Assembly (NCBI RefSeq): GCF_988242995.1
Contig: NZ_OZ547043.1
DNA: 64,000 bases
Strand: one strand, 5' to 3'
Part shown: positions 42,706 to 55,787 of the stretch, piece after piece
Layout of the letters: each line of letters opens with the position of its first letter
How positions within the stretch are numbered: the first letter of the stretch is position 1
Translations under genes and position numbers: made by a program
Notes under the pieces: model-generated
Told to the model about the DNA's origin: nothing
Databases searched by the model: none
The model's input: the letters and a program-made list of their open reading frames with translations, nothing else

Positions 42706-45357
42706 TTAGCGACAGATTGCTGTCTGCTGGTTCAGTAAGGTACCAGGAGAAACTTCAGGAAGCTTGTACTCGACAATACAGTTTGAGTTTTTATCTTTGC
42801 CCCATGAAACCTGTAATTTCCCTGACTGTGGAAGTCCAGTCAGATAAACCTGACCGTTTTCCGCGACAATGCTGCCATTTTTATTCTCACCATGTATGAC
42901 AATTGCACCGAATGGAACGCTCTTATTACCGTACTTCAACGTCATTAATACTTTCCCGCCGATTTGTGCATTAAATGTTGCTCTGGCAATAGCACCGTGA
43001 GTTGGGATGACAGTGACAACGGTTTCATCCAGTTCAACATTATCTGCAAGGGAATTCGCGTTAAGAGCGACACGATTTTCTCTATATTCTGTCGCAAATG
43101 GTAATATGGCATAGCCACGCCAGTCGGTATGAATTCCGGTCTGGTTCTCTATTTTGACATTATCAGCGCCAGGAGCCTTAACCAGAACCATTGTGTCGCC
43201 CAGCGGCTGACCAAAGGTGATGCCATCAGCATGAGCAATAATCCCACCACTCATTCCGTAATAAATCTGGCTGCTGTCACCACTCCGACTGTAACCGACA
43301 TTAGTATTACCGTAAGCTCCACGATAATTAAGAGAACTGTAACCACTGGTGGCAGACGATGTATTACCCCCGTGGGTGTTACCGACCTGAACGCTATAAT
43401 TCAGGTTATTATCCGGCAGCAGAGTGCCATAAACCCCCGATAGATTGGTCATACCGCCTTTCAAATCGTTTGACATACTGTAACTGGCGTTTGAATTACG
43501 AAATGCCGACTGACTGTCTGTACGCATCCAATGACTGAAGGGAACATTAAGCGTAAAAGCAAGTAAATGATCCCGATCGTTTTGCCATATATTATTGGAA
43601 TAGCTGTAATTCAGCGAAGTCGTAATATCACCAAACGGCACATTTAATCCAAATGATATTTGCTGGTCGCTGCGTGACGTGTTCCAGTAACTTTGGCGAC
43701 TGGCACTGAAAAATGTCGTACCGTAATTTCCAAGCTGCTGAGAGATGCTTATTTGTTCCTGACCACGCTTACTGTAGAACAGATTAAAATAATCAATAAA
43801 TTGTGTCTGCTCATTGCTGTCTCCGGTAGGAGGCTTGACGGTGTAACCACTCATTCGACTGTAGGCACTGTCGGATAAGTTATAAAAACCTTGCGTAGAA
43901 TAGCGATATCCTGCGACCTGGATATTGGTTCCCGTCTGGTAGAAGGATTTGCTGTAGACGGATTTAATCGATTGCCCGCTGTGACGGGTGCCATCTGCAA
44001 GTGTCGTATTGGCCTGCGTGATATCGAAAGAAAAGGCACCAAAAAGTCCTAAATCTTTACCAATACCAAGGTTGAAGGCTTGATAATCTTCTGCAATTTG
44101 CATTCCGCCATAAGGTGTCCAGTTTCCTTCCAGTCCATGCATCAAGCTACCTTGTATGAACTTGGGGGAGCTTTGCAGGTTATTTCCACTACGATATTCC
44201 CCCATGGCAAGCGCATAACGCGTATATCCAGCACGTTGGAGAACCGGAACAGACGAATAAGGAACATATAATGTCTGAATACTGCCGTCTGCCTCTTTTA
44301 TGGTTACTTGCAGATCACCACCATTGGCCGCAGAGTTGATATCATCAATAGTAAAAGGGCCGGGTGGGACAGTAGTCTGATAAACATCGTATCCATTCTG
44401 TTTTACACTCACTTGTGCGGTGCCGCGGGCAATACCATGAATCACCGGAGCGAAACCATGTTGGCTATCGGGCAACATCGCTTCTGTTGAATTTATTTTG
44501 AGGCCACGAAAGTTCACACTATCAAAAATATCGCCATCGGTATAACTATCACCTACCGTTAAGCGTGAGCGTAAGGGAATAATGTCACGTTCAGCCGACG
44601 TATTGATGTGCTGCCATTTATTGCTGTCAGATGAATTGCTACTCCCACTGTTATAACTCCACGTTGAGTTATCGCGCAGTCGCCAACTACCAATGTTGAT
44701 GCCACTCTGTAAATTCAAATATGCATAGTTGGATTTTCCTGCATTATGGTTACTACGATTATTAATAGAATTACCATTAAAACTATAGTTTAGAAGCCCA
44801 GCATTTATTCCTTCTTCCCACAGATCAGGAGAAACATAGCCGCGAGCCATTCTGCCAACATAAATTTGCGGAACGGAGAGTGACAAATGTTGCTGACCAA
44901 CATCAAACTCAGTTGATGCGTCGGCCAAACGATCCTGAAGTGGTGTGCATGCGCTGTTGTCCGGCACATGTTTTTCTGCCAAATGTTCTTTATTGTCTAA
45001 TAACGCTGATTTTTTTATGCCAAGACTGACAAGAAGATCTGTACTCAGGCATGGGATGAGATCTGCGTTATTATCATCTGCAATAAAAGTAATATCCCGA
45101 CTAGTCATAAATTCGTCGTTCAAATAAATGTCGACCCGATATGTACCAGGTGGTGCCTCGCGTCCCTTAGTAAAGGCGGATAAATCGACAGATTCAGCAA
45201 GATCATTGCTTAAAAACCGTGGATTAAAATAATACTCTGCGTCAACGGGAAATACCGCAGTTGCTAAGCCAAGGGCAATGGTAAGCCGTGCAAAGCGAGG
45301 CAGTAGTAACACCTGATGCATACGATATGCCTTAAATGCGGCACGAAAGGCTGTCAT
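42706..45357 (-). CDS. ydeT: Fimbrial outer-membrane usher, full length (FimD/PapC family)
   Basis: 883-aa uninterrupted ORF; as I recall ydeT is a truncated pseudogene in K-12, so here the usher appears intact. Confidence 0.8.
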   Translation of the reverse strand: MTAFRAAFKAYRMHQVLLLPRFARLTIALGLATAVFPVDAEYYFNPRFLSNDLAESVDLSAFTKGREAPPGTYRVDIYLNDEFMTSRDITFIADDNNADLIPCLSTDLLVSLGIKKSALLDNKEHLAEKHVPDNSACTPLQDRLADASTEFDVGQQHLSLSVPQIYVGRMARGYVSPDLWEEGINAGLLNYSFNGNSINNRSNHNAGKSNYAYLNLQSGINIGSWRLRDNSTWSYNSGSSNSSDSNKWQHINTSAERDIIPLRSRLTVGDSYTDGDIFDSVNFRGLKINSTEAMLPDSQHGFAPVIHGIARGTAQVSVKQNGYDVYQTTVPPGPFTIDDINSAANGGDLQVTIKEADGSIQTLYVPYSSVPVLQRAGYTRYALAMGEYRSGNNLQSSPKFIQGSLMHGLEGNWTPYGGMQIAEDYQAFNLGIGKDLGLFGAFSFDITQANTTLADGTRHSGQSIKSVYSKSFYQTGTNIQVAGYRYSTQGFYNLSDSAYSRMSGYTVKPPTGDSNEQTQFIDYFNLFYSKRGQEQISISQQLGNYGTTFFSASRQSYWNTSRSDQQISFGLNVPFGDITTSLNYSYSNNIWQNDRDHLLAFTLNVPFSHWMRTDSQSAFRNSNASYSMSNDLKGGMTNLSGVYGTLLPDNNLNYSVQVGNTHGGNTSSATSGYSSLNYRGAYGNTNVGYSRSGDSSQIYYGMSGGIIAHADGITFGQPLGDTMVLVKAPGADNVKIENQTGIHTDWRGYAILPFATEYRENRVALNANSLADNVELDETVVTVIPTHGAIARATFNAQIGGKVLMTLKYGNKSVPFGAIVIHGENKNGSIVAENGQVYLTGLPQSGKLQVSWGKDKNSNCIVEYKLPEVSPGTLLNQQTAICR

Positions 45358-45398
45358 TTTTAATTCCGATTGAGTTTATTATTAATTAGGTCACTGGC

Positions 45399-46118
45399 TT
45401 ATTGCATGGTTGCCTTAATACGCGGAGTTAATGCACCGTAATCATTGATCGTCTGAAAACTGATATCCCCGGTTGCAGCATGCGGGATATCCACCGATAC
45501 TTCACCTTTTGGCGGCACCATGGTGTTTGGGAGATTGCTATTTCCTGCTTTCATATTTGTTACGGTAATGAAGTAGGGCGTTGGATTAATAAGAGTGAGT
45601 TTGCTGCCGCTGCGACGAAACCGAAGCATTGCAGGCGCTTCTTCAGGTGCCATTGCCAGGTTCGTGGGGCGATAAAACATTTTTATGCGGCTAATAATTG
45701 CCAGCTGTAATGTATTCTCATTCTTCTGATCTTTTTCCATAGCAGGAATAGCTTTAACATTAACCCAGAACAGGCTTTCACGGTCGCCTGGTAACTGATG
45801 ATTAGTGGCGTTGATTATCCGCAGCGTATTCTCTTTTTTACCTTGCATGGAAAAAAGCGGTGGCGTAATGACAAACTGGGTGTCTTTTTGGTCACCCTCA
45901 TTTTCTATCCATGACTGAATGAGATAGACACTGGCAGGATCATTATTCGTGACAGGCAATAAAACCTGTTTCTGGTTTGCCGGATAAATTACCCGCGTCG
46001 CACCCAGTGCGACAGCTGCGTTGGCAACGGTGCTATGGCAAGCAAAGAGCAATAAAAGTAACACTGTCGCCATAAAGGAAATAGAGTAGGGGGTACGCCT
46101 AGTTTGCATCTGATGCAT
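45399..46118 (-). CDS. Periplasmic fimbrial chaperone (PapD/FimC family)
   Basis: 239 aa; signal peptide; chaperone-like N-terminal region and C-terminal domain. Confidence 0.8.
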   Translation of the reverse strand: MHQMQTRRTPYSISFMATVLLLLLFACHSTVANAAVALGATRVIYPANQKQVLLPVTNNDPASVYLIQSWIENEGDQKDTQFVITPPLFSMQGKKENTLRIINATNHQLPGDRESLFWVNVKAIPAMEKDQKNENTLQLAIISRIKMFYRPTNLAMAPEEAPAMLRFRRSGSKLTLINPTPYFITVTNMKAGNSNLPNTMVPPKGEVSVDIPHAATGDISFQTINDYGALTPRIKATMQ

Positions 46119-46471
46119 TCTCCATGTGTTAAGAGGATAAGCGGGGAAACCGTTACATCAGACAATCGGTAAATGTTGCTAATACATTGGCGACTCGCCG
46201 GGTTTCCAGACTTAATGCGTTTGTAATAAATGTTGGTTCTCTTTTAATAGGAAAACATTGCTACAAAGTAAATATTTTAAATAACAGTAAGTTTAACTAC
46301 TGTTGTTTATTGATCGTTTAGATATTATGTGATTTTTTCATGCCGCTCCAAAACACAAACTATTCCTCATTAATAATGAGATGAACATTGGTGAATTGCT
46401 CGGGTGTGCGTAGCCATGCCACACACACCCTGTTTCAATTTCAGATGACGTATAGCCACCTTAAGATTGAA

Positions 46472-47035
46472 TTATAGATATTGAACTTTGAAGGTCGCAT
46501 CAGCGTTTGCAGTACCAGCTACTGACTGCCCGAGAGCAATATAACGAGCCTGGAACGGCAGTATATTCGTGCCATCAATCAAGTCAGTTTTAGCGCTAAA
46601 AGTGGCACCATCAAGTATTAATACCTCACCCGTACGGTCCAAAATTTGAATACCGACATTTTGGGCAGAGCCTGCCGCTGAACTCTGCAGCGCTAACGTA
46701 TCGTCATTACTGGTGACAGTAGTACCCAGGAATGCAACAGCTGCATTACTGGAAACATTGGTATCACAATCATTCAGCTTGATATTGAAGCCAACGGCGG
46801 AGCTGAGGTCACCCGCTTTAGCCAGACGAGAAGAACGGACCTGACCCAGCTCAACCGTTTGGTTCATTGATTCTGAATCAATCGCACAAGCGGCATTTAC
46901 CACTTCACCTTTAAAATGAATAACACCGCCATTAACAGTGGTCGTTACTGATTCATCACCCTCGGCTGCGCTTACCGCAGCAGACGACATCGCCAACACA
47001 GAAACGACAATCATACCGACATGTTTGAGTTTCAT
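46472..47035 (-). CDS. Major fimbrial subunit (type 1 / F9-like pilin)
   Basis: Track ORF 46472-47083 with internal start [23 protein letters not shown]; Cys pair and C-terminal ...TFKVQYL typical of FimA-like pilins. Confidence 0.8.
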
Positions 47036-47468
47036 AATTCTCCAGAATTTATATTTAAGTAGCTGAATAAAGAAAGTTAACAATTAAGTCATTCTGTTAT
47101 TGCTTATAAAACAAGAATCATTCTTGATGGGATATTGCCCTGAGAATATAGTTTCCAGGGTTATTACATTTCACGAAGAACGATAATATCTTTAAATTAC
47201 AAGGACACCTAATCACAACAAGTTTATTGCAGCACTTGTTGTAGAGGGTATTTGCAAAGACATTTTATGTCGCTAAATAACATTACGATTTCATTATGCA
47301 TGTTATTTATAAACAGCGACTAAACAGAATATTATTGCGAACAAGGGAAGTGTCAGGAAAGGTCAAGAGCGGCCAATGGTTTATATGGCTATAAAACATT
47401 AGCTATGGTTAATGTTTGACTGGTGTAACTAACACGGAATTGCTCTAAACAGATAAGTGCAGGGTTTA

Positions 47469-47723
47469 TTAAAGCTGACCGACAGACTTTCTTAACCCGG
47501 TAATATCTCTCTTAGGTGACTCTCCAAACATCCGCGAATATTCCCGACTGAAATGGGATAAGCTTTCGTAACCGACAGCATAGGCTGCAGTGGTGACATC
47601 GTAATGTTCATTCAGCATCAGTCGCCTGGCTTCATTGAGGCGTAGCCATTTCTGATACCGGAGTGGACTCATTCCCGCAAGCTGTCTGAAGTGTTGATGG
47701 AAAGTGGGGGTGTTCATTTGCAC
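47469..47723 (-). pseudogene. yneL: Remnant of an AraC-family regulator (C-terminal HTH only)
   Basis: 84-aa ORF is only the AraC C-terminal HTH domain (LRYQKWLRLNEARRLM...GYESLSHFSREYSRMFGESP); no N-terminal domain ORF upstream. Confidence 0.65.
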
Positions 47724-48003
47724 GCGGTTTGCCAGCCTGACTCTTCAACGCAGGGAAGATGCGGCAAACGGCAAACCTGCATACCAGCCAGCCTATATCC
47801 GGTATGCACAGGCCAATCATGAAAGAGGAGAGGCTTTATGTTCTGGAACCCTGAAGTAATAACGACGACTGGAAAATCGCTTCGCATCACTCAAATTCCA
47901 TTTAACTATTCTGGGTTTGAGGGATATACATAATTGACTTCAGCACCAGAAACAGCATAACAAACTGTTTTAAATGGATATTAATCAAATGGCGATTCAA
48001 ACT

Positions 48004-48038
48004 CACAGTTATGAACTCAGTTTTGGTTCATAACTGTG
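48004..48038. repeat. Perfect 13-bp inverted repeat with 9-bp spacer
   Basis: cacagttatgaac-tcagttttg-gttcataactgtg; a related palindromic 10-mer gttcatgaac lies about 40 nt further on. Confidence 0.8.
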
Positions 48039-48137
48039 TTAAACGCTGTCCATAAATCACTCGATGTTACGCTTATTGGTTCATGAACTGTTCGTTCTAA
48101 TGTTGTGATGTGCGTCAGGTTTTAGTGTTCGGTAATG

Positions 48138-48941
48138 TTACCTTTTACTCGATGATCGATTGTTTAGCACCTCTCCCACAACCGGAGCAGCGGTAAATGC
48201 GTTTGGCCAGCCAGCATAGAAGGCGGCCTGGGTAACGATCTCACCAGCTTCCTCAACAGAAAGTCCATTATCCATTGCTCTGTTAAGGTGATAGCCAATC
48301 TGCGCGCTCTGTCCGGATGCGATTAAGGCGCTGACCGTAATCAGGCTTCTGTCGCGGGGTTTCAGCGCGGGTCTTTGCCAGAGATCCAGGAAGAGTGGAT
48401 CAGCAGTGAATTTAACCAGGCCTGGAGATATTGGGCCAACATTTTTTTCCACTGTTTCTGAACGCTGCTTTTCTGCTTCCTGATTGAGAGGAAGCAGGTC
48501 CGGAGAAGCGTCAGGAAGTGCATCTGCCGTGACGCCACGAGTTTCAAATACTGCTTTGGTCACGCTGACGGCTGACATTGCATTTGGCCAACCTGAGTAG
48601 AACGCCAGATGGGTAATGATTTCTGATAATTCCGCTGGCGTCACGCCGCTATCGAGAGCGACGTCAATATAGTGCTTAAGCTGGGCAGGCTGGTTGCGGG
48701 CAATCAGCATGGCGACGGTCACCACACTACGATCCCTCGGTGAGAGGGCGTCGCGTGTCCACAGATCTTCAGTAATAGCTTCGCGACCAAAGCGCGCGAG
48801 AGCCGGTGAGACGGAACGAATATCAGCTTCCGAAATCGCTGACGGTTCTATTTTCATCATAGCTTTACCTCTTGTTTCCTCAGCATTGGCAAAATCAGAA
48901 ATAACAAGCGACATAGCCGCTGCTGCAAGTACGCTTTTCAT
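48138..48941 (-). CDS. Tandem carboxymuconolactone decarboxylase-like (AhpD-like) protein with predicted signal peptide
   Basis: 267 aa; two repeated modules each with a ...ITHLAFYSGWPNA... type segment (CMD/AhpD fold); N-terminus MKSVLAAAAMSLVISDFANA looks like a Sec signal. Confidence 0.7.
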   Translation of the reverse strand: MKSVLAAAAMSLVISDFANAEETRGKAMMKIEPSAISEADIRSVSPALARFGREAITEDLWTRDALSPRDRSVVTVAMLIARNQPAQLKHYIDVALDSGVTPAELSEIITHLAFYSGWPNAMSAVSVTKAVFETRGVTADALPDASPDLLPLNQEAEKQRSETVEKNVGPISPGLVKFTADPLFLDLWQRPALKPRDRSLITVSALIASGQSAQIGYHLNRAMDNGLSVEEAGEIVTQAAFYAGWPNAFTAAPVVGEVLNNRSSSKR

Positions 48942-48956
48942 GTTAATCCTTACTGG

Positions 48957-49682
48957 TCAACGTTGCTGCTCCTGTTTGATTCCGCCTTTGTTACGAAGAA
49001 ATACCGGTTTTACCGGGATTGCGTCCTTCCTGGCGCTCATATGCGCCGTTTGCCTGAGGTAATCCAGGAAGTGCGGCGTTTGTCGGTGCAGTTGATAATC
49101 CTCCTCACTGGCGTAAATCTCATAGAAATACCAGCGTTTTGGAGTCTCTGAATCTGTACCGGCATACATGGCTAACACGCCTTTCTCTACTTTGAGCGAC
49201 TCGACCATTTCAGGAAGGACGATGTTTCTAAATTCGCTCTGAAATTCAGGCTTTACTTCGACGATCACCAGATTATTGATAGTTCGTTCATTCGGTATGA
49301 TGTGTTTGTCGCCCAGAAACTGTGGCTCCAGGGTAATTTTCTTCTTCCTGTCAATAATGTCAGGTGCACGAGCAGCGAATGCTTTGTATGGGGCGGCATT
49401 GAGATGTTTGCGATAAGCACGCTCATTTTCATAGAGTTCGAACATGAATGCCTTATGTGGATTGTCGCTGTGGTGCAGGGCGTACATCGCCAGCGTACCT
49501 ACTTCATGATCAACCGAAGCGGAAATCGTCTGTCTGGCTACGTCTGCAAAGTCGTTGTCCCGATCGGGTCTGATGCCGAGCTCGAAGATATTCATCTCCG
49601 GCTTATTCGGCGCGTCCGGTTTTGTTGCAAAGACAGGGCTGCTTATTAGCATGCAAATTAAAAGCATAAAAGTCTTTTTCAC
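48957..49682 (-). CDS. Tandem ABM-type (antibiotic biosynthesis monooxygenase-like) protein with predicted signal peptide
   Basis: 241 aa; two halves each with LAMYA...FYEIY / FELYENE... features of the ferredoxin-like ABM fold; N-terminus MKKTFMLLICMLISSPVFA. Confidence 0.6.
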   Translation of the reverse strand: MKKTFMLLICMLISSPVFATKPDAPNKPEMNIFELGIRPDRDNDFADVARQTISASVDHEVGTLAMYALHHSDNPHKAFMFELYENERAYRKHLNAAPYKAFAARAPDIIDRKKKITLEPQFLGDKHIIPNERTINNLVIVEVKPEFQSEFRNIVLPEMVESLKVEKGVLAMYAGTDSETPKRWYFYEIYASEEDYQLHRQTPHFLDYLRQTAHMSARKDAIPVKPVFLRNKGGIKQEQQR

Positions 49683-49797
49683 GATGATCTTTTTACTGAC
49701 ATTACTGTTTAAGACGTTCGATCAACTGGTGCTGGTAGGAACGTAACCGACCGCTACTGGCGCTCTCAAAGACTAGAGGAGGAAAAGTGAATAAGGG

Positions 49798-50817
49798 CTA
49801 TCGCGTCCATACCTGCTTAACATCTTTCGTTTGCGGCGTATTTTGCGCCATGATCCCCGTCAGAACATGCGGCTGGTAGGTTTCTTCCAGAAACTGAATT
49901 TCCTCCGGACTTAGTTGAAGATTTACTGCGTTTACCGCGCCATCGACATGAGCTTTTTTTGTAGCCCCTACGACAGGTGATGTGACTTTTGTCAGCAGCC
50001 AAGCGAGAGATATTTCCGTCATTGACACCAGATGGCGTTCGGCCAGTTCGGCTACACGCTCAATAATGCTGCGATCCTGTTCAGCCGTGCTGTCATATTT
50101 TCCACGCGCATAGTCATCCTCTGTGGCTCGCCGCGTATAGCCTTCTTTACGAGAGAGGCGGCCGCTGGCCAGCGCGCTATAGGGGGTCATTGCGATATTA
50201 TCCTCAGTGCACAGGCCGAAGAGCTCCCGTTCATCTTCGCGCATAATTAGATTGTAGTGGCTCTGTACGGAAACAAAGGGCGTCAGCCCTTCGCGTTCAG
50301 CAAGGGCGTTCGCCTTCGCCAGCTGCCAGGCATAGCAGTTTGAAATACCAACAGCTCGTACTTTGCCAGCAGTAACAGCGGTATGTAACGCTTCAAGCAC
50401 GTCGATAATGGGCGTGTTGTAATCCCAGATGTGGTAGATGTAGAGGTCGATATAGTCCATCCCCAGATTCTTCAGGCTCTGGTCAAGGGATTGAGCGATT
50501 GCCTCTTTTCCGCTGATCCCTCCGGCAATTTGTGCGGGGGTTCGCGGCAGAAACTTGGTGGCCAGGACGATATCATCGCGTTTCGCCATCTCCCGTAATG
50601 CCCGGCCAACGTATCGCTCACTGGAGCCATTCTGGTAGGCTATAGCGGTATCGTAAAAGTTGATGCCCTTTTCAAGGCCATAGCGAATGATGTCGCGGCT
50701 TGCTGTTTCGTCCAGCGTCCAGCTATGCTGACCCGTCGACGGATCGCCAAACCCCATGCATCCCATGCAGATGCGGGAAACAAGTAAGTCACTTTTACCG
50801 AGCCGGGTATACTGCAT
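49798..50817 (-). CDS. Aldo/keto reductase
   Basis: 339 aa; AKR motifs (GINFYDTAIAY, catalytic Tyr/Lys context). Confidence 0.8.
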   Translation of the reverse strand: MQYTRLGKSDLLVSRICMGCMGFGDPSTGQHSWTLDETASRDIIRYGLEKGINFYDTAIAYQNGSSERYVGRALREMAKRDDIVLATKFLPRTPAQIAGGISGKEAIAQSLDQSLKNLGMDYIDLYIYHIWDYNTPIIDVLEALHTAVTAGKVRAVGISNCYAWQLAKANALAEREGLTPFVSVQSHYNLIMREDERELFGLCTEDNIAMTPYSALASGRLSRKEGYTRRATEDDYARGKYDSTAEQDRSIIERVAELAERHLVSMTEISLAWLLTKVTSPVVGATKKAHVDGAVNAVNLQLSPEEIQFLEETYQPHVLTGIMAQNTPQTKDVKQVWTR

Positions 50818-50819
50818 TG

Positions 50820-51392
50820 TTATTCTCCCTCTGGATTATTCACGACGGAATTGAGCAGTTCGACAAGCCTTGAAGCGTGTTCCCGGGCAAGCGTTTTTTG
50901 CTGCGCGATTTTGTCGGCATCCCGGTCGGCATAGCTGATACCGCAGGTATAAACCGGCGCCAGCAGCTCAAGATTGCACAGCCTTGCCGTGGTTTCGAAC
51001 GGAATAAGATACTCTTCAATGGTATTGCCAAAGAAACTGTCGACGGTATAGAGCTCCTCTGGCGCTCCCGTTGTAAAGGAGAGGATCAGCTTTTTACCGC
51101 CCAGTTTCGCCGTTGAGCCATGCGCGAAGCCGTGAACAAAGACCTCGTCCAGCCATTTTTTCATTAATCCTGGCAGCCCATACCAGGAAAAAGGGAACTG
51201 CCAGACAATCACATCGGCCCTGAGCAGGCTTTTCTGCTCCGCCGCGATGTTGAATTTGCCATCCGGATAGAGCCTGTCCAGACGACGAATCTCAACATCG
51301 GGAAGGGCGGTCTCCACTTCATCAAGAATAGTGGCATTGGCGACGGAATGGGTAAGCTCAGGATGACCTGAAATAACAAGGATATTTTTCAT
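50820..51392 (-). CDS. Flavodoxin-like NAD(P)H:quinone oxidoreductase family protein
   Basis: 190 aa; MKNILVISGHPE... N-terminus and WQFPFSWYGLPGLMKKWLDEV typical of NAD(P)H dehydrogenase (quinone) family; 3-nt gap to the downstream AKR gene. Confidence 0.75.
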   Translation of the reverse strand: MKNILVISGHPELTHSVANATILDEVETALPDVEIRRLDRLYPDGKFNIAAEQKSLLRADVIVWQFPFSWYGLPGLMKKWLDEVFVHGFAHGSTAKLGGKKLILSFTTGAPEELYTVDSFFGNTIEEYLIPFETTARLCNLELLAPVYTCGISYADRDADKIAQQKTLAREHASRLVELLNSVVNNPEGE

Positions 51393-51542
51393 TTCAATCA
51401 GTTAAACATCTTTGGTGAATATTAAATCCAGTATAGAGTGACAACATTATTTTTTTAGAGCAGTAAAGGCTCATTCACTTTTAGGCAAAAACTAATAATT
51501 GTCGGCTGATCACAATGTGCTCAGTCATCATGAAACGGTGAA

Positions 51543-52220
51543 CTAAACCGTGATGCCCAGTAAACGTTCTGCATTGCGAAACGCGATGGCCTCTTTTTCA
51601 GCCTTGTTGACGGGCAGACTGTCTATAAAGGTTTTTACACCGTCCAGGGGTCTGATAGGGATAACCGACGGAGAACAGGATCCTTTCAGCACCCATTAAC
51701 GCGTAGATAAACTGGAAGTGCGGCAGTGTTAGCATATGACGGGGTAACGTAAACGTGTTCCTGGAAGGTTCTCGTTAGCGTGCGTGACAGACCCGTTGCA
51801 GCCAGTGCTAGGCTGTCATCAAGACGCTGGAGCCAGAAGGGTAACATCTCCCCCCAGTGGCCACTGATTACCTGCAGGTTGGGATATTTATCAAATGCGC
51901 CCGATAACATCAGCCGCAACAAATGGATCCCCGCTTCGTGATGCCAGCCCCAGGCAAACATAGAAAGCCTGGCGTTGACCTCTGCGCTGAAGCCCGTGAA
52001 GTAGGCCTGCTGTACGCTTTTAAGCGGTAACCCGGGATGAAGATAGAGTGGCACATTCAGTTTATTAAAGCGGGAAAGCAGGGAGTCGGTCAGGATTATG
52101 ACCATCAGCGACGGTTTTCCCCCTGTCGCCAAGGAAAGGTGCCTGCTCAAGCGCAACAGGCATACACGCGCGCCCTAACTCGCTGTCGAGATAATTTTCT
52201 TCGAGGCAAATGATTTTCAT
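51543..52220 (-). pseudogene. Frameshifted amidohydrolase-2 (TIM-barrel metal-dependent hydrolase) gene
   Basis: Coding potential is split over three frames: MKIICLEENYLDSELG... (from ATG at 52220), a 156-aa middle ORF (51686-52156) containing ISGHWGEMLPFW, and a C-terminal piece ...AEKEAIAFRNAERLLGITV* ending at 51543. Confidence 0.55.
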
Positions 52221-52322
52221 ATTCTCACCATTCATACAAAGCAGTAAAAGTGATACAGATTAGAATCACCCGGAACAGCCCGTTCGTGTGTGTCATTCAT
52301 GACAGTCTGTTCCGGACGGGCT

Positions 52323-53270
52323 TTACACCATCGGTTTTTCCCAGGCGCCTCGTGTATCCACTCTGGTCTCTGCGGCGAGTTGTTCCAGCAGGATGATTTC
52401 CTCATCGCGTAACTGGATGTCTGAAGCGCAGGCGGCGTCCAGAACGTGATGGACTTTAGTCGCACCAACGAGGGGAAGGGTACCTTTCACAATAGCCCAT
52501 GCGATGGATATCTGTGCCACGCTGGCATTCCTTTCGGCTCCCATTTTTTTCATGGCGGCGGTTAGTCTTTCTATCTGCGGCAGTACGGCGTTATAACTTT
52601 CGGCCCGGCCACTCCCGGCAGGCATGGGATGATTTGAATCATAACGACCACTGAGCGCGCCTTGCTCCAGGACCATGTAAGCAAAGAACGTGATGTTATT
52701 TTGTCGGCAATAATCAAGGATCCCGGCCTCTTCAGAAGCGCGATAGAGCAGGCTGTAGTGATTTTGTACTGCACTGAGGGAATAACCGGAAGCGTTAAGG
52801 ATTTCATTGGCGCGTCTGATTTGTGCCAGATTGTGGTTGGAAACACCTACGCGTTTTACCTTACCGCTTTGTAAAAGTGGGATCAGTCCTGGCGTCCATT
52901 TTTCGACGTCGAGGGGATTATGGATCCAGTAGATATCAATCGCGTCCACGCCCAGGCGCCCAAGGCTGGCCTCAAGCATATCGCTGACAGGCTGCGCAGA
53001 CTGCTTGTCCGCAATCTGCGGCGTGAATTTGGTGGATAAAATTATGTTCTCGCGGGGAAACTGACGGACTAATGCTCCCAGCGCAGTCTCGGAACTCCCC
53101 ATACCATATACTGCTGCGGTATCCCAGAGATTGAGGCCCTTACTCATGGCCGCAGTGAACACTTCTGCCATCTGAGTATCAGAAAGATGATTACCAAAGA
53201 CGGTGTCGCCGCCGGCAAAGCCTGTGCCCCAGGACCATGTACCTAGTGCGACTGGAGGTAGTGTTTTCAT
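52323..53270 (-). CDS. Aldo/keto reductase
   Basis: 315 aa; AKR motifs (LWDTAAVYG, IDIYWIHNP). Confidence 0.8.
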   Translation of the reverse strand: MKTLPPVALGTWSWGTGFAGGDTVFGNHLSDTQMAEVFTAAMSKGLNLWDTAAVYGMGSSETALGALVRQFPRENIILSTKFTPQIADKQSAQPVSDMLEASLGRLGVDAIDIYWIHNPLDVEKWTPGLIPLLQSGKVKRVGVSNHNLAQIRRANEILNASGYSLSAVQNHYSLLYRASEEAGILDYCRQNNITFFAYMVLEQGALSGRYDSNHPMPAGSGRAESYNAVLPQIERLTAAMKKMGAERNASVAQISIAWAIVKGTLPLVGATKVHHVLDAACASDIQLRDEEIILLEQLAAETRVDTRGAWEKPMV

Positions 53271-53343
53271 ATTCAGCTCCTGAAAAAAGGCCGGATCGTG
53301 GCTGACTTAAACCGGCCAAGTAAGGTGAGTAACGATGAATTAA

Positions 53344-54033
53344 TTAAGCTGTCCGGCGGAGTGCATTTAACAGCGCCACACCAACCCCATGTGCTGAAGC
53401 GGGATTCTGCCCCGTGATAAGGCGATCGTCGGTAACCACGTTTTCAGACCAGTTTGGAGCTTCATGATAAAGCGCACCATGCTCGCGAAGTGCGGTTTCA
53501 AGCAGGAAGGGAACCACATCTGTTGTGTGAACTTCTTCCTCTTCCTTGTTGGTAAAGGCCGCCACATTTTTCCCTTTTATCAGGTATTCGCCGCTACTGA
53601 GTTTTGCGTCAACCAATGCCGCAGGCCCGTGGCAGACGGCTGAGACAATCCCATCACTTTCATACACTTCGCGGATAATACGCTGGGCATCCTGATTATC
53701 ACGGAAATCCCACATGGTCCCATGACCACCTGCAAAGAAAACTGCGCTGTAATCGGCACCTTTCAGCTCGGATAACGCAGGTGTTGTTGCCAGGCGCTGC
53801 TGAAAATCGGTTTCGTTCCAGTACCAGGCGTTAACAGGGTCGCTGAGGTCAAATCCATCCACCGGTGGCTGCCCCCCGCGAATACTGGCTATTGTTGTTT
53901 TTATTCCGGCATCTTCCAGTACTTTCAGCGGATGAGTCAGCTCGGCCAGGAAAAAACCGGTTGGTACACCGGATGCGCCTTTAATCGGATGGCTGGAAAC
54001 GACACATAGCACTGGTTTATATGCAGGTTTCAT
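53344..54033 (-). CDS. DJ-1/PfpI (class I glutamine amidotransferase-like) family protein
   Basis: Roughly 229 aa; nucleophile-elbow-like AVCHGP; start uncertain (track ORF extends to 54045). Confidence 0.75.
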   Translation of the reverse strand: MKPAYKPVLCVVSSHPIKGASGVPTGFFLAELTHPLKVLEDAGIKTTIASIRGGQPPVDGFDLSDPVNAWYWNETDFQQRLATTPALSELKGADYSAVFFAGGHGTMWDFRDNQDAQRIIREVYESDGIVSAVCHGPAALVDAKLSSGEYLIKGKNVAAFTNKEEEEVHTTDVVPFLLETALREHGALYHEAPNWSENVVTDDRLITGQNPASAHGVGVALLNALRRTA

Positions 54034-54041
54034 ATCGGTCC

Positions 54042-54353
54042 TCACTCTTTATTTTTAAATTCATCGGCGAAGAGATTTTCCCAGTTAATAAAGGAGCCAA
54101 GCGGTATACACTCGAAGCTTAGTAAGCCTGCTTTTGCCAACGGGAATTCGGCCATAACGTTCATCGCTTCATCGACAGAGTCACATTCAAGAAAAATAGC
54201 GACGCCAGGTCTGTCCTGACGGAAGTAGATGTCGCGGATGAAGCCTGATTTATACAATCCCCAGGCGTGCAGCGCTTCAGCGTTGAGGTGCGGAGCATAT
54301 TTCTCCAGCGATGCTCCAGGGGCAGGGATATCCAGACATAAAATTCGCATCAT
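54042..54353 (-). CDS. Small alpha+beta-barrel protein, possibly muconolactone-isomerase-like
   Basis: 103-aa ORF first in the operon; weak pattern similarity to muconolactone isomerase and other dimeric alpha/beta-barrel proteins; assignment tentative. Confidence 0.45.
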   Translation of the reverse strand: MMRILCLDIPAPGASLEKYAPHLNAEALHAWGLYKSGFIRDIYFRQDRPGVAIFLECDSVDEAMNVMAEFPLAKAGLLSFECIPLGSFINWENLFADEFKNKE

Positions 54354-54489
54354 AGTCTCCTGAACTCAGGTCGTTGTAGAAAGAGACTAAAGTATAAGAG
54401 GCGTATTTCAGGAAGATTAGAGGGTCATTGACTTAAGCATTTTTAGACTGTACTTAATAATCAGGCGAGAATTGCTTTAGGAAAACATT

Positions 54490-55389
54490 ATGAATAACGC
54501 TCTTTATAACCAGATTCGCATCTTCCAGAGCATTGCGCGGGAGGGCAATATTTCGGCAGCCGCAAGGAAACTGGAAATTACGCCTCCCTCCGTCAGCAAT
54601 GCACTAAAGCTGCTGGAAGAGTATATCGGCCATCCGCTTTTTGTGCGTACGACCCGCCGTATAGAGCTGACGGAAACCGGTCAATTATTGCTGGAACAGA
54701 CCGCTGCGGCGGTGGAGTCGCTGGAAAACTCACTTGAAAGCATTCGCGACCAGCATCAGGAGCCCTCTGGGATGGTGCGAATTACGCTCTCGCGTTTTGC
54801 CTACCTGTTAATTCTTAAGCCTGCGATGGCAGAATTCTGTCAGCAATATCCGGGTATACAGTTAGAAATTTCGGTCTACGACGGTACCGTGAATATCATC
54901 AAAGAGCGTTTTGATCTGGGGATCCGTTTTGGCGATATTCTTGAGGGAGGGGTGGTGGCCCGACCGTTAATGAAACCGTTTCGTGAAGGATTATATGCAT
55001 CCTCAGCGTATCTCTCCCGACATGGAACGCCTGAAGTGCCGGCAGATCTCTGTCATCACCAGCTGATTGGTTACCGTTTTATCACCAACAACCGCATCCT
55101 TCCGCTGCTCCTGAACGATCGCGGTGAGCAGTTGACCGTTGAGATGCCGGGGCAGTTAATCAGCAACGATATTGACGTTATGGCAGACGGGATCCGTAAC
55201 GGGCTGGGAATTGGGCGCTTGTTTGAGCCTGTCTGGCAGTTACAGCCGGACAGGGAGCGCTTTATTCCGGTGATGGAGAGCTACTGGAAAACCTACCCGC
55301 CAGTGTATCTCTATTACCCCAAAAACGCGGGTAAAACGAAAAGAGTGAAGGCCCTGATTGATTTTCTGATATCCACTACGGGGCGATAA
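54490..55389 (+). CDS. LysR-family transcriptional regulator
   Basis: 299 aa; N-terminal HTH (ISAAARKLEITPPSVSNALKLLEE) and LysR substrate-binding domain; divergent from the redox operon. Confidence 0.85.
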   Translation: MNNALYNQIRIFQSIAREGNISAAARKLEITPPSVSNALKLLEEYIGHPLFVRTTRRIELTETGQLLLEQTAAAVESLENSLESIRDQHQEPSGMVRITLSRFAYLLILKPAMAEFCQQYPGIQLEISVYDGTVNIIKERFDLGIRFGDILEGGVVARPLMKPFREGLYASSAYLSRHGTPEVPADLCHHQLIGYRFITNNRILPLLLNDRGEQLTVEMPGQLISNDIDVMADGIRNGLGIGRLFEPVWQLQPDRERFIPVMESYWKTYPPVYLYYPKNAGKTKRVKALIDFLISTTGR

Positions 55390-55787
55390 AGACGATAACG
55401 CCTCGTTCAGTATGGAGATGCATCGAATGGCATTGTGAGTTTTTTTTCACAGATGGGCGTAATCGTCAGTGGATTTTACATACGAGGATAGCGCCCACAT
55501 ACTGACATCATTAATTAACGTTGGGTGAGGTTTACCGGGGGGGAGGGGAACGCGAACCAGGAGATGGAGGTGGCCAATCTGGTACGAACCGCCGCGTAGC
55601 TTGCACGGCAAGAGCTGCTGACTGATTCATCAGTTAAGCTACTGAAAGAGCGGAACACATGAACTTAAGAACAAACCACCACATTTAACATAATATACAT
55701 TATGCGCACCAGCATAAACCAAGGAAGAATCCAGTCGTTGGCGGCCATAATTGTCCTGCTCATTAACAACGACCAAAACCCCATATC

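Follow-up and report, generated by a model that had tools for sequence, protein, structure and literature searches.

The F9 fimbriae of Escherichia coli are produced by a chaperone-usher operon at the yde locus, which has been named F9 fimbriae in EHEC and UPEC and Fml in UPEC. F9/Fml fimbriae matter in chronic bladder infection, in biofilm formation at low temperature, and in the attachment of O157:H7 to plants and bovine epithelium. The start site of f9 transcription was determined by 5'RACE in strain CFT073 (Wurpel et al. 2014, PLoS One 9:e93177; PMC3966885) and is a G located 251 nt upstream of the start codon, with a -10 hexamer CATAAT and a -35 hexamer TAGTCG separated by an 18-bp spacer. 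In the same study, H-NS retarded a 251-bp f9 promoter fragment of the CFT073 allele in gel shift assays as well as it did the bla control, F9 was derepressed in a CFT073 hns mutant and repressed again on complementation, and wild-type CFT073 was found to produce F9 at 20 C.

The stretch of DNA analyzed here (64,000 nucleotides, hereafter the window) carries the same promoter in front of the same pilin gene. The promoter, the long leader, and the silencing by H-NS were already known and published in 2014, and the window adds no new element to them. The region upstream of the pilin gene is very probably the F9 operon promoter followed by a long 5' leader and silenced by H-NS, and a palindrome within it is most likely incidental. 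The start site, the binding of H-NS, the derepression in the hns mutant, and the expression at low temperature were established by experiments on the CFT073 ortholog and not on the strain of the window, whereas the identity of the locus, the positions of the promoter elements, the base composition, and the absence of an inversion were obtained in the present analysis.

The locus was identified as the E. coli F9/Fml/yde chaperone-usher fimbrial operon, encoded on the minus strand. Gene order, RefSeq annotation, and primer matches all placed the spacer directly upstream of f9A in the yde gene order and near hipA; the neighbors followed the order ydeQ, ydeR, ydeS, usher, chaperone, 'fimA', and an AraC-family remnant, with hipA further out. 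The genes bordering the spacer and those downstream in the operon were as follows.

42706-45357, minus strand: usher gene (from the list of open reading frames).
45399-46118, minus strand: chaperone gene (from the list of open reading frames).
46472-47035, minus strand: f9A/fmlA, major subunit gene (from the list of open reading frames), encoding 187 aa with a signal peptide; Pfam Fimbrial, PF00419, E = 5.9e-31.
47040-47043, minus strand: Shine-Dalgarno sequence GGAG, 4 nt from the ATG and invariant in 11 of the 11 full-length copies aligned.
47469-47723, minus strand: C-terminal remnant of an AraC-family regulator (yneL / Z2199 / ECs2114); Pfam HTH_18, E = 1.6e-22; a pseudogene in RefSeq, with the N-terminus missing.

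An identical 564-nt f9A coding sequence is annotated by RefSeq in strain 2012C-4221, the DNA of which is 99.9% identical. Six of the seven CFT073 f9 primers (Wurpel et al. 2014; two RACE and four screening primers) were located on the operon at 0 mismatches, and the seventh, RACE primer 4235, showed 2 mismatches to the window. The screening and RACE primers for CFT073 c1936 mapped to f9A, and the c1936 and c1934 primers had 0 mismatches. Of the 5,426 complete E. coli genomes searched with the spacer and its flanks, 5,157 gave a match at the yde/F9 locus. A copy of f9A with 99% identity, accompanied by the E. coli spacer at 94%, was also detected on contig JARKOR010000214.1, which is labelled as part of a Candidatus Nanosynbacter metagenome-assembled genome; this copy is almost certainly E. 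coli contamination of the bin.

The start codon of f9A was assigned to the ATG with its A at 47035, where a typical signal peptide begins. The first-pass annotation had described about 385 bp of AT-rich non-coding DNA at 47084-47468, with the left border at 47084 because the longest open reading frame, opening at TTG 47083, had been taken. The AT-richness was confirmed, but the borders and the length were not: since the pilin gene begins at ATG 47035 and not at TTG 47083, the true spacer extends from 47036 to 47468 and measures 433 bp. Its upstream end is the stop codon of the AraC-family remnant. The spacer, including the promoter, had a GC content of 0.328, far below the 0.479 of the 64-kb window, within which only 1.1% of the 433-bp windows were equally AT-rich.

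Next, the published promoter elements were located. The -35 hexamer, the 18-bp spacer, the -10 hexamer, and the +1 G of CFT073 were all present in the window, base for base, at the following positions.

47286, minus strand: transcription start site, +1 G, 251 nt counted from the ATG (5'RACE in the CFT073 ortholog).
47293-47298, minus strand: -10 hexamer CATAAT, invariant in 13 E. coli copies.
47317-47322, minus strand: -35 hexamer TAGTCG, exactly 18 bp from the -10 hexamer; TAGTCA in O157:H7 and related lineages.
47324-47367, minus strand: best-conserved block of the spacer (-38 to -81), with a second promoter-like match, CTGACA-16-TAATAT, at 47329-47356.
47036-47286, minus strand: 5' untranslated leader of the f9 operon mRNA, 251 nt, GC 0.30.

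The -35 hexamer was absent from a consensus promoter scan because only three of its six bases agree with TTGACA. As the published start site lies at 47286 in the window, the region from 47036 to 47286 is the transcribed 251-nt leader. A sigma-70 promoter at this position would direct minus-strand transcription from 47286 through the AT-rich leader into f9A and then into the chaperone, usher, and minor subunit genes. A leader peptide was considered and rejected: the open reading frames of at least 20 codons in the leader were all short, and a 1-nt insertion was found inside the 25-codon frame in strain N96.

Conservation was analyzed in an alignment of 13 E. coli copies, 11 of which were full-length through the leader, and in a separate alignment including the divergent N96 (84% identical). 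The leader (47036-47285) showed 11.2% variable columns among the main lineages and 86% identity to N96, while the corresponding values for the third codon positions of f9A were 12.2% and 81%. The promoter core showed 7.9% variable columns, and in the block at 47324-47367 a single column varied among 11 typical lineages, compared with about 11% in the leader. The promoter core and this block are thus the best-conserved parts of the spacer, and the block could act as an activator site or serve as a second promoter. Beyond about 47433-47448, on the upstream side, all similarity between the lineages ends, which marks a synteny breakpoint; in the B2-like strains JA0266 and S103EC, and also in T309.Ta3 and N96, unrelated sequence occupies the place of the AraC-family remnant. 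Because of this breakpoint, the f9 regulatory DNA that the lineages have in common reaches no further than about 150-165 bp upstream of the start site. Of 58 related loci compared, only the E. coli copies could be aligned in the spacer. A FimA-family gene of Citrobacter sp. JGM124, with 76% identity to f9A, is preceded by a 1-kb AT-rich spacer, and the -10 block TGCATAAT, located 222 nt before its ATG and so at much the same distance as in E. coli, was the sole part of the spacer retained, which hints that the long leader may be ancestral.

The first-pass annotation had suggested that regions of this kind are either silenced by H-NS or carry an invertible switch. The former agrees with the published experiments on the orthologous locus, whereas the latter is contradicted by the genome comparisons described below. 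Two matches at 8 of 10 positions to the H-NS motif TCGATAAATT were detected, at +8 and +89, and these correspond to two of the six positions given in PMC3966885; with 2 matches in 433 bp against about 0.75 expected at the window-wide rate, the enrichment was not significant. We infer, by analogy with the CFT073 ortholog, that H-NS behaves alike on the allele of the window. H-NS would spread over the DNA flanking the start site, which in either direction has the AT-rich composition of an H-NS substrate, and so keep the operon silent at 37 C, and the silencing would be eased at about 20 C. A 2025 study of CFT073, however, reported low F9 expression with no thermoregulation, and therefore H-NS together with temperature control is not the whole story.

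The palindrome, caagaat-c-attcttg, had been reported near 47114-47128. The sequence exists as described, but its position was 2 bases off. A second inverted repeat in the leader, unreported in the first-pass annotation, is stronger.

47112-47126, no strand assigned: palindrome CAAGAAT-C-ATTCTTG, a perfect 7+1+7 dyad at +161 to +175 of the transcript, 77-91 nt upstream of the ATG.
47215-47242, no strand assigned: inverted repeat ACAACAAGT-N10-ACTTGTTGT, a perfect 9-bp stem at +45 to +72 of the leader.

Of the dinucleotide-preserving shuffles of the 433 bp, 12.5% contained a perfect dyad with arms of 7 bp or longer and a spacer no longer than 2, and 39.9% contained a 7-bp stem whose loop did not exceed 12; the 64-kb window contained 18 dyads of the same quality. 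A stem of at least 9 bp, as in the repeat at 47215-47242, was found in only 4.4% of the shuffles. The notion that the palindrome is a functional element was therefore not supported, as it falls within chance expectation and is no better conserved than the neighboring leader. Located inside the transcribed leader, it most likely arose incidentally from the AT-richness of the sequence, and it would supply no more than one strand of a local RNA helix. The 251-bp fragment bound by H-NS, for which PMC3966885 gives no EMSA primers, may or may not have included the palindrome.

Two other readings of the leader assign a role to the palindrome. A perfect 7+1+7 dyad has the usual shape of a site for a dimer, and it may be proposed that a dimeric transcription factor of the LuxR/FixJ type, e.g. 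RcsB, binds it as an operator downstream of the start site, either blocking transcription or countering H-NS. The colanic acid capsule is, like F9, expressed at low temperature, which gave a lead for RcsB. The dyad bears a loose likeness to the RcsAB box TaAGaatatTCcta (consensus from PMC4325325), but the ungapped agreement extends to only 9 of 14 positions, with 3 of the 5 conserved positions among them, and the spacing between the half-sites exceeds that of the box by 1 bp; a better match was obtained by removing the central base, which alters the half-site spacing, and the dyad was accordingly rejected as an RcsAB box. The annotation had named a lack of conservation among strains as refuting. 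Of the 11 full-length lineages, 9 carry the dyad in perfect form, but the sequence around it is equally well conserved, and the relative Citrobacter sp. JGM124 does not have it. The changes that break it (C>A in O111:H8; the last G missing in N96, with 14 of 15 bases kept) are not accompanied by compensation, and a search allowing 3 mismatches yielded 3 matches in the window, including the dyad itself, against 3.9 expected, so that no second copy beyond chance was detected. Given also that dyads of such quality are expected by chance, an operator is very unlikely. Since the dyad is perfect in 9 of 11 lineages and retains 14 of its 15 bases in the 84%-identical N96, it may nevertheless be under modest functional constraint. 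The other reading takes the leader as a cis-acting regulatory RNA: AAGAAUGAU, the palindrome's left half, would form a long-range helix with AUCGUUCUU, which lies about 55 nt further upstream, in competition with the local hairpin, and this would set mRNA stability or translation and help to favor expression in the cold. In every predicted fold the left half was indeed paired with AUCGUUCUU and not with its own right half. This helix (columns 105-116 with 162-173 of alignment A3) was predicted for each of the three alleles tested and also for the consensus, with all cells paired, and the left half was about 90% paired in the ensembles of four alleles from 18 to 42 C. The leader of the window folded better than its shuffled versions (z = -3.66), but this score was not reproduced with O157:H7 (-0.33) or N96 (-0.43). 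Compensatory changes numbered 0 among 77 predicted pairs and the covariation score was reached by 401 of 500 shuffles, in a sample with 96% mean column identity, the sequences of which are too alike for a real test. The predicted accessibility of the Shine-Dalgarno sequence and AUG followed no consistent temperature trend across the four alleles, and no Rfam match was found in the spacer, nor any with E below 6 in 46400-48200. Holmes et al. (2020) found that an fmlA translational fusion was expressed at least sixfold more strongly at 18 C and suggested translational control, but they explained the difference between fusions in part by the different GFP variants used. If the proposal were true, the leader helix would account for this 18 C effect reported for O157:H7; with no Rfam match, no covariation, and a z-score confined to one allele, the leader could not be assigned to the known cis-regulatory RNAs or RNA thermometers, and the proposal is regarded as unlikely. 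The promoter with a long, H-NS-silenced leader is the reading that we retain.

The 9-bp hairpin at 47215-47242 was predicted in each of the three alleles folded, and single pair-breaking changes without compensation were present in two lineages. Position 47214, at the base of this hairpin, is the exact endpoint of two independent deletions. The K-12-type ydeT deletion, with the junction 43932|47214 (removing 43933-47213), was found in 1,380 of the 5,426 genomes; f9A and the chaperone gene are lost in it, along with most of the leader and a portion of the usher gene, and the promoter is left fused to the usher remnant ydeT. The second junction, 44787|47214, occurred only in strain T309.Ta3, the upstream arrangement of which differs. 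This coincidence suggests a hairpin-associated deletion hot spot at 47214. It is improbable, though conceivable, either that the leader helix tunes the translation or stability of f9 mRNA in the cold or that the hairpin is a structure-driven deletion hot spot and the cause of the K-12-type loss of the operon.

The remaining alternatives concern phase switching. The invertible fimS element is 314 bp long. The first-pass annotation had stated that no flanking inverted repeats were seen, and this is nearly correct: one weak pair brackets the promoter, in some lineages only. The repeats at 47279-47293 and 47594-47608 are complementary at 14 of 15 positions and enclose, with a fimS-like geometry, a 300-bp segment containing the -10 and -35 hexamers, so that the promoter might be thought to lie on an invertible segment. 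When the pair was checked in 11 lineages, however, it was complementary at only 12-13 of 15 positions in seven others, and the right arm was missing in the B2-like strains and N96, which still have the operon and the promoter. A constructed inverted junction was matched with at least 80% query coverage in none of the 5,426 complete E. coli genomes, while its halves were matched separately in 4,252. At least 80% of the spacer was present at one place in 3,434 genomes, with only 11 extra places in 4,948 records, and among the matches listed each spacer match was a single collinear piece. No recombinase gene was annotated within 6 kb on either side, and no FimB/FimE-like tyrosine recombinase was found among these neighbors or among the open reading frames of 44000-54000. 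A switch of the fimS type, for which conserved repeats, both orientations, and a nearby recombinase were sought and none was found, was rejected and has next to no probability. The same holds for a switch by methylation as in pap, for which the sole support is the general precedent of Dam/Lrp switches in other chaperone-usher operons: this is excluded in practice because GATC sites are absent from 46900-47800 (1.7 expected per 433 bp at the rate of the window), and papI- or papB-like genes were not found nearby.

The AraC-family remnant upstream of the spacer, which has been termed a cryptic CDS (PMC7766294), lies on the same strand as the operon and may be the relic of a lost dedicated activator. 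Between this remnant and hipA, the window contains about 8 kb of extra genes (47724-55682) compared with K-12-type genomes, and their products include a carboxymuconolactone decarboxylase family protein, a quinol monooxygenase, aldo/keto reductases, and an NAD(P)H oxidoreductase. Downstream of the carboxymuconolactone decarboxylase family gene, at 48004-48038, two perfectly complementary 13-bp arms separated by a 9-nt loop (CACAGTTATGAAC...GTTCATAACTGTG) form an inverted repeat that could be a terminator or an operator.

In summary, the analysis corrected the start of the pilin gene, placed the palindrome within the transcript, and removed the idea of an invertible switch across 5,426 genomes. 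Like fimS of type 1 fimbriae, the locus has its promoter in front of a pilin gene of the FimA family, with weak repeats some 300 bp apart around it; unlike fimS, it has neither conserved repeats nor a recombinase gene nearby, and the inverted form was seen in none of those genomes. The H-NS-silenced cryptic chaperone-usher promoters of K-12 (reference 34 of Wurpel et al. 2014) are likewise AT-rich upstream, silent in the laboratory at 37 C, and derepressed without H-NS; in contrast to the K-12-type genomes, 1,380 of the 5,426, in which the operon is partly deleted, the F9 operon of the window is intact. The B2-like strains JA0266 and S103EC encode an F9A protein that differs from that of the window, whereas their leader and promoter are about 94-95% identical to it. 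The closest described system is the F9 promoter of CFT073 (Wurpel et al. 2014), which is the same locus with an identical -35 hexamer, spacer, -10 hexamer, +1 G, and leader length, and which shares the putative H-NS sites at +8 and +89, whereas the window has an EHEC-like upstream arrangement with the yneL/Z2199 remnant directly upstream.
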